The notes under the pieces were generated by a model. It was given only the letters and a program-made list of their open reading frames with translations. It was not told the DNA's origin and did not search any database. A stretch of 64,000 nt of DNA, taken from NCBI GenBank assembly GCA_965223415.1, contig OZ245002.1, forward strand, positions 4,128,001 to 4,192,000, given 5' to 3'. The DNA is from Myxococcota bacterium (GTDB lineage: Bacteria > Myxococcota_A > UBA9160 > UBA6930). Positions 37,499 to 40,471 of this stretch are shown piece by piece (position 1 is the first letter of the stretch; each line of letters opens with the position of its first letter). Both the position numbers and the translations under genes were made by a program.

Positions 37499-38326
37499 AT
37501 GTCGACCGTGACCGCCGCGAGCCAGCGCGAACACCGCGTGACCACCCGCTCCCTCCAGCGCGCGAAGCGCCGGGGCGAGCCGTTCTCGATGCTCACCGCC
37601 TACGACGTCACCTTTTCCCGCATCTTCGACCAGGCGGGCATCGACGTCCTGCTCGTCGGGGATTCGGTGGGCAACACCACCCAGGGTCACGAGAACACGC
37701 TCCCGGTGACCCTCGACGAGATGATCTACCACACGCGGATGGTCGTCCGCGGCGCCTCCCGCGCGCTGGTCGTGGGCGACATGCCCTTCGGCTCCTACCA
37801 GGTCTCGCCGGAGGACGGCGTCCGCAGCGCCATCCGGCTGATGAAGGAGGGCGGCGCCCACGCGGTGAAGCTCGAAGGCGGCCGCCGGGTGAAGGAGACC
37901 CTGGCCCGCATCGCGGGCGCGGACATCCCGGTGATGGGCCACGTCGGCCTCACGCCCCAGTCGGTGCACGCCATGGGCGGCTACCGGGTGCAGGGCCGCG
38001 GCGAGAGCGGCCGGGATCGGGTGATCCAGGACGCCCTGGCGGTGGAGGCCGCCGGGGCCTTCGCCCTGGTGCTCGAGGGCGTGCCCGCGGACCTGGCCCG
38101 GGAGATCACCGCGACGGTCGGCATTCCGACCATCGGCATCGGCGCCGGCGTCGAGTGCGACGGCCAGGTGCTGGTGCTCCACGACCTGCTCGGGCTCTCG
38201 GACTGGACGCCCAGCTTCGCCAAGCAGTACGCCAACCTGGGCGCGGCCGCCTCCCAGGCCGCCCGGCAGTTCGCCGAGGAGGTGGCGCACCGCAAGTTCC
38301 CCGGCGACGAGCACTCCTACCGTTAG
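37499..38326 (+). CDS. panB: 3-methyl-2-oxobutanoate hydroxymethyltransferase
   Basis: MLTAYD, LVGDS, DMPFGSY, VKLEGG, GHVGLTPQ, DGQVLV. Confidence 0.97.
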   Translation: MSTVTAASQREHRVTTRSLQRAKRRGEPFSMLTAYDVTFSRIFDQAGIDVLLVGDSVGNTTQGHENTLPVTLDEMIYHTRMVVRGASRALVVGDMPFGSYQVSPEDGVRSAIRLMKEGGAHAVKLEGGRRVKETLARIAGADIPVMGHVGLTPQSVHAMGGYRVQGRGESGRDRVIQDALAVEAAGAFALVLEGVPADLAREITATVGIPTIGIGAGVECDGQVLVLHDLLGLSDWTPSFAKQYANLGAAASQAARQFAEEVAHRKFPGDEHSYR

Positions 38327-38341
38327 ATACTCCCTTCGTCG

Positions 38342-39337
38342 TCAACCCTTCGTGGCGAAGAATTTCTCGCCAAGGAAGTCCTGGTCGTGGCGGAGCATGC
38401 CGTAGATGGCGTGGAGCAGCTTCCGCATGACGGCGACGAGTGCTTGCATCTTGGTTTTGCCCTTGGAGAGCAGCTTCTCGTAGAAGGCCTTCACGTTCGG
38501 TTCCCAGCGTGCAGCGACCATCGCAGGAAGAAAGAGTGCGCGGCGAAGGTGGGCGTTGCCGGTCTTGCTGATGCGAGCTGGCTTGTGCACAGAGGTGCCC
38601 GATTGAAACTGTCGGGGGTCGAGGCCCGCATGCGCGACCCATTGCCGGGTCGTCATGTCCTTGGGCAAGGTGCCTAGCTCGGCGAGCAACTGGATGCCGG
38701 CTGCGTCGGCGATACCCTTGATCGATGTGATGTGGCCGAAGTCTCTGGCGAGCTCGGGGCTCTGCTCGATCACCTTCAACGCTTGCTTGCGCAGCCGATC
38801 GATTCGCCCCTCCAGGAGCTCGATCAGTTCGCGGATGTCTTGCTTCACGAACTCACTGAGCTCCTCGCTCTGGTCGTTGGCATGGAGCCGGTTCTTCTCC
38901 TGCGTCACGGTCTTGCTCAGAGCCTCCACGCGGCGGGAGAGGGCCCGTACCTCCAGAATTCGGGGGTCCGGCGGAGTCCAGGCGGAAAACTCCATGCGCA
39001 TTCCGAACTCGAGAATCGTTTCCGCATCGAGCGCATCCGTCTTGGAGCGTTGAAGCGATGCCTTGGCGAACGCGGCAATGGCCCGCGGGTTCGCCACCAT
39101 CACCTGGGACGCCTTCGCACGGTGAAGCGCGAACGCGAGGTCGAGGCCGTACACCCCGGTCGATTCCAGGACGACGCGCGCCGTCGCATTCCCCTTCGTG
39201 GCCCACCGAATCAGCCTCTGGTGGCCCTTGGGATCGTTCGCAAAGACCAGCCCGCCCTCGCGAGTTCCGTTCCGGTCGATGGCGACGACGAGCTCCTTCG
39301 CCCCGACGTCCACGCCCACGTAATGACACTTCTTCAA
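38342..39337 (-). CDS. IS110 family transposase/recombinase
   Basis: DEDD residues GVDVG, LESTG, SKTDALD; C-terminal AGLDP..QSGTS, ISKTGN..LR..L, AVMRKL; TTG start with GGAGGAG RBS. Confidence 0.95.
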   Translation of the reverse strand: MKKCHYVGVDVGAKELVVAIDRNGTREGGLVFANDPKGHQRLIRWATKGNATARVVLESTGVYGLDLAFALHRAKASQVMVANPRAIAAFAKASLQRSKTDALDAETILEFGMRMEFSAWTPPDPRILEVRALSRRVEALSKTVTQEKNRLHANDQSEELSEFVKQDIRELIELLEGRIDRLRKQALKVIEQSPELARDFGHITSIKGIADAAGIQLLAELGTLPKDMTTRQWVAHAGLDPRQFQSGTSVHKPARISKTGNAHLRRALFLPAMVAARWEPNVKAFYEKLLSKGKTKMQALVAVMRKLLHAIYGMLRHDQDFLGEKFFATKG

Positions 39338-39394
39338 GGTCTCTCCTCCCCGTGATAAGCTGGGACCCGGGTCTCCCGACCCTGCACATTCACC

Positions 39395-39555
39395 TACGGA
39401 CCTTGTAGACGCAGGCTCTCGGGCCTCGGATACTCCACGGCATGGGTGACGAGGGCGGGAGGCCCATCTAACGGACAAGCTCTCTGGCTTCAGGCAGCGA
39501 CGGCCTTTCCCGGGAACCCATCTCGGAGTCTCACTCAGGCCCGAAGAGCCTGCTC
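39395..39555 (-). ncRNA. IS110 bridge RNA (5' hairpin, target-binding loop, donor-binding loop); ends approximate
   Basis: Minus-strand guides UCGCUGCCU and CCGUUAG match target CCGCCGC-CT-AACGG; GGAGUAUC and UACAAG match donor GGAGTAT-CT-TGTA. Confidence 0.85.
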
Positions 39556-39574
39556 AGAGGTACAAGGCGGCGGG

Positions 39575-40471
39575 GTGGAGATCGTACGCGACACCCGGGC
39601 GCTCCAGGCCCTGGCCGACGGCGCCCGCGCCGAAGGCCGGCGCATCGCGCTCGTGCCCACGATGGGTGCGCTGCACGCCGGCCACCTGGCGCTGGTGGAG
39701 GCCGCGCGGGAGCGGGCCGAGCGGGTGTGCGTCTCGATCTTCGTGAACCCCTCCCAGTTCAACGCCGCTGCCGACCTCGCCGCCTACCCGCGTAACTGGG
39801 AGGCCGACCTCGTCGCCTGCCGCGAGGCCGGGGTCGACTGGGTGTTCGCGCCGGAGCCCGAGGAGCTCTACCCCGATGGCTACCAGACCTGGGTGGATGT
39901 CGAGGAGCTCTCCCAGCCCCTGTGCGGCGCCGCGCGGCCGGGCCACTTCCGCGGGGTCGCCACCGTCGTCGCGAAGCTCTTCCTCGCCGCGAAGCCCCAC
40001 ACGGCGCTGTTCGGCGAGAAGGACTACCAGCAGCTCGCCCTGATCCGCCGGATGGCGCGGGATCTGGGCTTCGACGTCGAGGTGGCCGGCGTGGCCACCG
40101 CGCGCGAGGCGGACGGCCTCGCCCGGAGCAGCCGCAACGTCCACCTGGGTGCCGGCGAGGTGCGCCGACAGGCGACGGCCCTGGTGCGGGCGCTCGACGC
40201 CGCCGAGGCGGCGGTGCTGGCCGGCGAGGTGCGCGCCGAGGCCCTGGTCGGGATCGCCCGGGAGGAGATCGGCAAGGCGCCCCTGGCCGAGATCGACTAC
40301 GCCGAGCTGCGCGACCCGGACGACCTGAAGCTCCTGCGAGGCGAAGTGACCGGTCCCTCGCTCCTCGCCCTCGCCGTCTTCTTCCCTCGTGCCGCGGGGG
40401 ACGGTGAGACCGTACGACTCATCGACAACCGCGTTCTGCAAGCGCCGCGACCCCTGGAGGAACGGACGTGA
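39575..40471 (+). CDS. panC: Pantoate-beta-alanine ligase
   Basis: [40 protein letters not shown]. Confidence 0.97.

Follow-up and report, generated by a model that had tools for sequence, protein, structure and literature searches.

A structurally complete IS621-type insertion sequence of the IS110 group, with its bridge RNA, very probably lies between panB and panC in a Myxococcota bacterium

Three described systems frame the element reported here. IS621 of E. coli has been studied experimentally (Durrant et al. 2024, PMC11208160), and its residues D11, E60, D102, D105 and S241-G242 are given as a composite active site by Hiraizumi et al. 2024 (PMC11208158). ISCro4 (PDB 9t56) is a distant orthologue that was compared by its protein only. 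The attC elements of the IS1111 family, ISKpn4 and ISPst6, are presented in PMC11187229 as RNA-guided and as inserting at one end of attC sites, and the same source gives the IS1111 group a long non-coding region downstream of the gene and subterminal inverted repeats. In this study, which was based on a stretch of 64,000 nucleotides of a Myxococcota bacterium (assembly GCA_965223415.1, contig OZ245002.1, positions 4,128,001 to 4,192,000 of the forward strand; hereafter the window) and on a comparison with related loci, we describe an insertion at positions 38325..39566, between panB and panC, which is known from its sequence alone. We consider it very probable that the insertion is a structurally complete IS110-group insertion sequence of the IS621 type that carries a bridge RNA. 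It adds one more case to a known system and is ordinary for its kind. The insertion and its flanks are composed of the following parts:

38325..39566, minus strand: whole insertion with both copies of the CT core, delimited by the reading of the junctions, by ends that are common to relatives whose flanks differ and by a drop in G+C
38327-39564, minus strand: element proper, 1238 bp
39565..39566, minus strand: left copy of the CT core; most relatives likewise have a CT in front of TGTA
39338..39564, minus strand: left non-coding end, 227 nt, predicted to encode the bridge RNA
38342..39337, minus strand: recombinase gene, TTG start, 331 codons, TGA stop, with the ribosome-binding site GGAGGAG upstream
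38327..38341, minus strand: right non-coding end, 15 nt, terminating in GGAGTAT
38325..38326, minus strand: right copy of the CT core; its plus-strand AG belongs to the panB stop codon TAG
37499..38326, plus strand: panB, flanking gene whose last codons are the right half of the target (PF02548, 1.1e-114; TIGR00222)
39575..40471, plus strand: panC, flanking gene whose GTG start lies 8 nt from the insertion (PF02569, 3e-93; TIGR00018, positions 1-282/283)

The recombinase contains the Pfam domains PF01548 (DEDD_Tnp_IS110, 3.8e-26) and PF02371 (Transposase_20, 1.5e-20), and it scored 218 bits against the NCBIfam model NF033542, 'IS110 family RNA-guided transposase', for which the cut-off is 140. 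Its residues 4-321 align with the solved proteins of ISCro4 (9t56, 4.1e-49), which is the best match among the solved structures, and of IS621 (8wt6, 2e-46). In the latter alignment, in which the numbering of chain 8wt6_A is shifted by +2, residues D11, E59, D102, D105 and S247-G248 of the window protein (P0001) pair with D11, E60, D102, D105 and S241-G242 of IS621. The two elements agree in both protein domains and in all five catalytic residues, at a protein identity of only 36%. Among the 8,000 candidates that were scored in a protein database search, 4,159 proteins were found at E <= 1e-30, and the best match other than the window's own protein was 87% identical; judged by this search, the recombinase is one member of a very large family.

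The stop codon TAG of panB (38324-38326) and the GTG start of panC (39575) were read directly, with 1,242 bases between them. On the minus strand, the left junction is ...CCCCGCCGC-CT-TGTACCTC... and the right junction is ...GGGAGTAT-CT-AACGGTAGG...; the empty site CCGCCGC-CT-AACGG and the circle junction GGAGTAT-CT-TGTA, both of which had been proposed in a first-pass annotation of the window, follow directly from them. An element-free panB-panC junction would be expected to read ...CCGTTAG/GCGGCGGGGTG..., that is, TAC CGT TAG/GCGGCGGG GTG, with a single AG (here and below, a slash marks a junction). The comparison set consisted of 79 related loci from species-representative genomes, with protein identities of 44-83%, while the relatives from metagenome and viral collections entered as proteins only. 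In most of these loci, (C)T-TGTA opens the end upstream of the gene, GAGTAT-CT closes the end after the stop codon, and the DNA beyond these ends is unrelated between loci. The G+C content is 0.62-0.65 within the element as opposed to 0.69-0.77 in its flanks. The protein domains, the ends and both CT cores thus bear out the earlier claim of a complete IS110 element at 38325..39566.

Like IS621, the element has a CT core and a long non-coding end upstream of the gene, and the ends of the two are nearly identical: ..ACAGTAT/CT/TGTAT.. in a copy of IS621 on an E. coli plasmid and ..GAGTAT/CT/TGTAC.. in the window. The window element and the IS1111-attC group belong to the same recombinase superfamily, both are RNA-guided, and the close relatives of the window element appear to share the insertion at attC ends. 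Unlike that group, the window element has its non-coding region upstream of the gene (227 nt, compared with 15 nt downstream), and no terminal or subterminal inverted repeats were found, as 0/17 inverted pairs in the element connect both ends. Because of the upstream position of the non-coding region and the lack of subterminal inverted repeats, the element was classed with the IS110 group rather than with the IS1111 group.

The left non-coding end would encode a bridge RNA of about 180 nt, whose expression we infer from the sequence. Within this end and next to the gene, the following features were located:

39370..39509, minus strand: target-binding and donor-binding loops, matched over the full length of covariance model R1, 158.2 bits
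39492..39500, minus strand: left target guide (LTG) UCGCUGCCU, on the 5' side of the first loop, which reads like the top strand CCGCCGC-CT
39468..39474, minus strand: right target guide (RTG) CCGUUAG, on the 3' side of the first loop, a perfect complement of CT-AACGG
39466..39467, minus strand: target-loop handshake dinucleotide AU, directly 3' of the RTG, complementary to the final AT of the right end
39429..39436, minus strand: left donor guide (LDG) GGAGUAUC, on the 5' side of the second loop, which reads like GGAGTAT-C, the right end plus core
39402..39407, minus strand: right donor guide (RDG) UACAAG, on the 3' side of the second loop, the complement of CT-TGTA
39400..39401, minus strand: donor-loop handshake dinucleotide GU, directly 3' of the RDG; the G pairs with the last C of the target and the U may wobble with the preceding G
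39557..39562, minus strand: TACCTC, candidate -10 box, weak, 2/6 to TATAAT
38340..38345, minus strand: TTGACG, candidate -35 box, which overlaps the stop codon

Covariance model R1, which comprises 140 positions and was built from 18 relatives with the window excluded, finds the window RNA with E=2e-31 over model positions 1-140/140, and no non-standard pair was flagged. The first-pass annotation had proposed a fold and covariance-model check of this region, and the RNA was indeed matched by a model that was derived from its relatives. R1 also matches directly upstream of the recombinase gene in 77/79 loci, with one RNA in each; the two loci without a match, L007 and L041, are cut short on that side. 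An RNAalifold prediction for the window together with the 18 relatives gave two internal loops and 28 pairs, 11 of which have compensatory changes. The first loop has GGCC/GGCC as its closing helix and an AAGC/GCUU hairpin as its cap, and it holds UCGCUGCCU on the 5' side and CCGUUAG on the 3' side, while the second has a 9-bp closing helix and an AGGC/GCCU cap and holds GGAGUAUC and UACAAG. All four guides therefore sit in two internal loops that are supported by covariation, and guides outside such loops were the outcome that the first-pass annotation had named as contradicting it. In the 59 distinct rows of the R1 alignment, 95.8% of the cells are paired compared with 85.6% in column shuffles, both sides have changed in 20/28 pairs, and the covariation score was reached by 0/500 shuffles. 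When the partners were slid by 1-3 columns, pairing fell to 27-52%. The R1 alignment is fitted to the model, which is a bias toward the structure; despite this, a real structure is favoured by the slid controls and by the independent RNAalifold prediction. A search of Rfam 15 yielded no match in the element, nor on the IS621 bridge RNA region itself, and for the latter reason this negative result carries no information.

The region around the RDG, 39399-39409 (UCUACAAGGUC), is complementary at 10/11 positions to 39331-39341, which spans the TTG start of the recombinase on the minus strand. In a read-through transcript, this pairing could mask the initiation of translation, or the complementarity may be due to chance; the start regions differ in the relatives.

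The four segments lie on the minus strand where they had been placed initially (LTG 39500-39492, RTG 39474-39468, LDG 39436-39429 and RDG 39407-39402). The RTG had been described as a perfect 7-mer and complements CT-AACGG at 7/7 positions, while the LTG matches its side of the site at 7/9 positions exactly and at 9/9 when G:U pairs are counted. In 20,000 dinucleotide shuffles of the 227-nt non-coding end of the window alone, the exact 7-mer of the RTG occurred in 261, the 8-mer of the LDG in 135 and the 6-mer of the RDG in 191, and all four guide matches in the right order were obtained in 0/20,000. The relatives provided a further comparison, for which the guides of 78 loci and the window were extracted by alignment column, de-duplicated and each compared with its own flanks; before the count, sequences were dropped if they lacked a recognisable GAGTAT right end (12) or a TGTA left end (25), or if no guide could be extracted (2 and 1). 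The five variable bases of the RTG agreed with their own right flank at 3.84/5 on average, compared with 1.89 +/- 0.16 after the flanks were swapped (n=43), and the seven variable bases of the LTG agreed with their own left flank at 4.54/7 compared with 2.80 +/- 0.17 (n=48); for either guide, 0/10,000 shuffles reached the observed value. The proposed matching of guides and target is thus also seen as covariation of the LTG and the RTG with their own flanks. A clear match was found in L040, in which the RTG ..UACAUAG faces CT-ATGTAAC and the LTG CCGUUACCU faces CCGTTAC-CT, and further clear cases are L059, L027, L018, L038 and L022 (RTG CCGUCAG with CT-GACGG).

In the case of the left guide, the first-pass annotation had reported two C-to-U differences. 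Both were seen, but the first LTG position (U versus C) fails to match in most relatives and probably does not belong to the effective guide, which is therefore taken to be CGCUGCCU against CGCCGCCT, with one real deviation, a U-for-C at position 5. The same 7-nt guide is present in L019, L020 and L051, in which it sits once in GCTGCCT and twice in GCCGCCT; the deviation thus recurs in 2/3 occupied sites, which indicates that it is tolerated in nature. A comparable situation is known in IS621, in which the guide encodes G and the natural target has A at position 4, as given in PMC11208160 and PMC11208158; in both elements, the natural target differs from the guide at one position, and the difference conserves the purine or pyrimidine. 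The window RTG has 7 nt, whereas the right guide of IS621 was analysed with four bases in those two papers.

Several relatives showed deviating arrangements of guides and sites. L022 (junctions near 776 and 1768) has an RTG that is perfect to CT-GACGG, unlike its relatives at that position, and its LTG ACGGCGCAU agrees with the left flank CCGCCGT-CT at only 4/7 variable positions; its donor-loop handshake AC would pair with ..GT of the left flank, and the locus may represent a half-matched insertion. In L004, L005, L006 and L010, the left junction is GCCGC-AT-TGTATA and the LTG ends in ..CAU, the guide and the site having changed together. The right junction, which is known for L004, L005 and L006, is GAGTAT-CT-AACGG. 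The RTG and RDG of all four still carry the complement of CT, so that the 'core' copies differ, and a target core AT might recombine here with a donor core CT. For these four loci, we also considered a shifted register with the core AT and the target GCCGC-AT-CTAACGG, in which the RTG plus two bases (CCGUUAGAU) would match at 9/9 positions; this was dropped, because the two bases 3' of the RTG are the donor handshake guides and are present in all of the relatives whatever their core. Fifteen loci (L062, L064-L075, L077 and L078) are on one Methylophagaceae chromosome, OZ252593.1, with the LTG GCUCGACCU in 13 of them and UUCCAACCU in 2. Each insertion directly follows the 3' arm of a short hairpin repeat, e.g., GTTGGAC-TAAA-GTCCAAC/CT, and many of these sites fit the 'other' LTG variant better than their own. 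Identical or near-identical pairs in direct orientation were found in L043/L044, which are about 400 nt apart on the same contig, and in L023 (2541-3497 and 4297-5253); the left flank agrees with the LTG at 3/7 positions in L043, which is no match, and at 6/7 in L044.

Both the donor guide and the element ends are nearly invariant in the relatives, and the RDG varies too little to be tested. In 7/10 loci, a variant LDG tracks a variant right end, namely GAGAAT in L063, L036 and L016, GAGCAT in L056 and GAGTGT in L054, and also in L021 and L046; of the exceptions, L045 and L061 have no match and L060 is not truly variant. Together with the exact LDG and RDG of the window, these variants uphold the proposal that the donor guides match the circle junction GGAGTAT-CT-TGTA. 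With regard to the handshake dinucleotides, AU pairs with A6-T7 of the donor, and GU pairs with C7 of the target plus a wobble at G6. In one covarying case, L054, the right end is ..GTGT and the target-loop dinucleotide is AC. The letters and positions of AU and GU correspond to A81/U82 and G166/U167 of IS621. In both IS621 and the window, the target loop comes first and the donor loop second, and the left guides (LTG and LDG) follow the sequence of the top strand, to which the right guides (RTG and RDG) are complementary. The loop order, the polarity of the guides, the handshake letters and the catalytic residues all agree between the two elements, in line with the bridge RNA architecture of the IS621 type that had been proposed.

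Based on this layout, the element would be excised as a circle, by analogy with IS621, and in the circle TTGACG and TACCTC would come to form a promoter for the bridge RNA. In the first loop, UCGCUGCCU would pair with the bottom strand of CCGCCGC-CT and CCGUUAG with the top strand of CT-AACGG, while in the second loop GGAGUAUC and UACAAG would pair likewise with the joined circle ends GGAGTAT-CT-TGTA. As handshake guides, AU and GU would pair with the partner DNA after the exchange of the top strands, and a recombinase tetramer would exchange the strands at the CT core. Thus, by the same analogy, we infer RNA expression, circle formation, present-day activity and programmability.

In both IS621 and the window, the -35 box is in the right end and the -10 box is in the left end. 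TTGACG and TACCTC would be 17 nt apart across the circle junction, and in a survey of 44 non-redundant reconstructed junctions, in which a few left ends were mis-picked by the regular expression, TTGAC was present in 32. The hexamers of the relatives at the same -10 position are TATATT, TATATC or TATCTC. The two boxes of the junction promoter that was proposed in the first-pass annotation have the positions and spacing given there; the -35 box is good and the -10 half is poor. L002 and L003, which are the closest relatives with a complete left end, share TGTACCTC and the weak TACCTC with the window, which makes the weak -10 box a trait of the lineage and not a private defect. We regard the junction promoter as plausible by its position and as weak by its sequence in this lineage.

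The flanks of the relatives also provided information on the target itself. The right flanks of the close relatives share AACGGAT..GGCGCTCAGC.GCGG, and a motif search of their loci found unoccupied target repeats that read GCTGCCT/AACGG and GCCGCCT/AACGG uninterrupted; the left sides GCTGCCT, GCGGCCT and GCCGCCT stand directly before AACGG in the unoccupied copies. In L051, three unoccupied copies and one occupied copy were found within 7 kb and in one orientation. The copies that were located are:

L051: 1003, 4013, 4483 and 6218
L020: 2190 and 4013
L003: 735
L007: 1638
L022: 2343
L019, L001, L009, L011 and L004: in the right flanks

The alignment of 14 copies revealed a repeat of 115-184 nt with a GCCTAAC-like start and a variable middle. 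Its end is GTTRRRY in 11/14 copies and GTTAGCC in one more, while two are degenerate. In minimum-energy folds, the bottom strand of 6/12 copies (L051 1003 and 4013, L020 2190 and 4013, L019 and L009) forms a long imperfect hairpin with two single-base bulges six bases apart, and the other six fold differently. These traits resemble those of attC sites, for which PMC3053210 gives an RYYYAAC inverse core and a GTTRRRY core around a variable palindrome, a folded bottom strand with two extrahelical bases six nt apart on one side, and a length of 57-141 bp. Among the 66 open reading frames of 13 loci, scanned over about 3 kb on each side, no tyrosine integrase was found; for that reason, we call the repeats attC-like and leave their identity as integron sites undecided. 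The genes around the repeats encode an HTH_37 protein, a GNAT acetyltransferase, hydrolases, methyltransferases and many products without an assigned family, and several insertion sequences are also present. The latter (L051 4677-5753; L009 1518-2765 and 5615-6730; L019 30-740 and 850-2235; L011 86-1509; L004 3018-4562) include a second, different IS110-family recombinase and IS481-like, IS21-like (IstB) or Mu-like transposases.

The RYYYAAC end of attC-like repeats appears, from these sequences, to be the usual landing site of the close relatives, while the targets of IS621 in E. coli are REP elements, in a host of different G+C content. Of the 47 non-redundant sites for which both junctions are known, 16 have RYYYAAC across the insertion point; hairpin repeats of other kinds serve as targets in other sub-clades, as with the 15 copies in one Methylophagaceae genome. 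No attC-like repeat was found by the same motif pattern at the window site or elsewhere in the 64 kb. The window site shares only CCGCCGCCTAACGG with the repeat, and the plus strand puts GTTAGGC across the stop codon of panB. The panB/panC site is most likely a look-alike, 12-14 nt long, of the usual target of the clade. The GC-rich sequence CCGCCGC-CT-AACGG, which was put forward as the real target, accordingly matches the guides, but it only resembles the attC-like repeats that the close relatives use. It is conceivable, and we put it forward tentatively, with somewhat more doubt than confidence, that these elements form an undescribed clade of the IS110 group that is specialised across several phyla on the RYYYAAC end of attC sites, that it has converged with the IS1111-attC group, and that the panB/panC copy is an escape into a housekeeping operon. 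In the literature that was searched, the listings of which were not exhaustive, we found no description of attC targeting by IS110-group elements. With respect to the distribution of the relatives, the RNA and ends of L047 and L048, which are on short contigs that were binned as Methanosarcinaceae/Methanovorans archaea, are nearly identical to those of the bacterial elements L052, L053 and L076 from Methylococcales and Methylophaga; this likeness suggests either a transfer across domains or a binning error.

The conclusion that the element is structurally complete and of the IS621 type has to be weighed against a number of findings that speak against it. The single-sequence minimum-energy fold of the 229-nt end was no better than that of shuffles (z = -1.12, 29/200 as good); it is uninformative, and the placement of the guides in the loops consequently rests on the comparative structure. 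The 5' 59 nt of the window and 6 relatives also folded no better than shuffles (z -0.8 to +1.2), and a conserved 5' hairpin is therefore not claimed. When applied to the IS621 copy, R1 recovered the donor-loop half only, with a weak score of 9.7 bits and E=0.14, so that the homology of the RNA to that of IS621 rests on the layout. Some of the relatives fit their left flanks poorly, one site at 0/7 and three at 1/7. The remaining unfavourable points are the start codon of the recombinase, the lack of a second copy, the -10 box and the left target guide, and they bear on the alternatives that follow.

The alternative that survives best, which we nevertheless consider unlikely, is that of a stranded copy, poorly mobile or immobile, which landed once at an off-target look-alike and makes its RNA inefficiently owing to a degraded -10 box and a weak start. 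The start codon is TTG, and TACCTC matches TATAAT at only 2/6 positions, while most relatives have TATATT or TATATC and 21 of the 32 junctions with TTGAC have a hexamer that matches at least 4/6 at 17 nt. The site is outside an attC-like repeat, of which the pattern used found none in the window. There is no second copy of the element in the 64-kb window, in which the only match was the element itself, and hence nothing that points to a recent transposition. The database cluster of the window protein is listed on one contig, a listing in which copies on the same contig are uncounted and which says nothing on copy number. The window also contains no second good target, with one 2-mismatch site without a CT core compared with 2.15 expected by chance. 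On the other hand, the reading frame is of full length and every catalytic residue has been kept, the R1 score of 158 bits is level with the 160 bits of the three-copy set L019/L020/L051, and the weak -10 box is shared with L002 and L003.

Far less probable is a different placement of the boundaries, in which the right end would include CTAACGG, the stop and last codons of panB would be supplied by the element, and the match to the RTG would be internal, so that panB of a sister genome would end before ...TACCGTTAG. CTAACGG does follow GAGTAT in many close relatives; however, the bases after GAGTAT/CT vary together with the RTG (CTATGTAAC, CTCCGCT, CTTCAGG, CTCGCGC and CTGACGG), and unoccupied repeats in the same loci carry GCCGCCT/AACGG contiguously and without an element. 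That the matches between guides and flanks are coincidental and that the protein alone chooses the site is barely credible: an LTG-like match of at least 7/9 did arise in 9,879/20,000 shuffles, which is the chance level for this guide alone in a GC-rich window and means that its support comes from the relatives, but all four matches in order arose in 0/20,000, the covariation with the flanks was reached in 0/10,000 for both guides, and the guides fall in the loops of a structure that is supported by covariation. We therefore retain the reading of a complete IS621-type element with its bridge RNA.

As regards the host locus, the insertion is antisense to the panB-panC pair and lies 8 nt upstream of the panC start, and panC is therefore cut off from whatever drives panB. 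At 39567-39577 of the window, the last bases of the element and the flank read AAGGCGG just before the GTG of panC, so that a motif resembling a ribosome-binding site is retained. The insertion may influence pantothenate synthesis in the host strain.

For the family, the element adds a natural bridge recombinase from a very GC-rich host, with an RTG of 7 nt and a GC-rich target, which may be of modest use for collections of orthologues for genome engineering. All four guides could be located by eye from the sequence, and the first reading of the anatomy was accurate. Of the side results, the attC-like target of the close relatives is the most interesting; for IS1111-family elements, the targeting of attC has already been published, as PMC11187229 describes. 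If the repeats are true integron sites, IS110-group elements would disrupt and reshuffle cassette arrays in environmental bacteria, an effect that is known of the IS1111-attC group in other hosts, and the guides of these IS110-group elements would record the attC family of each host.

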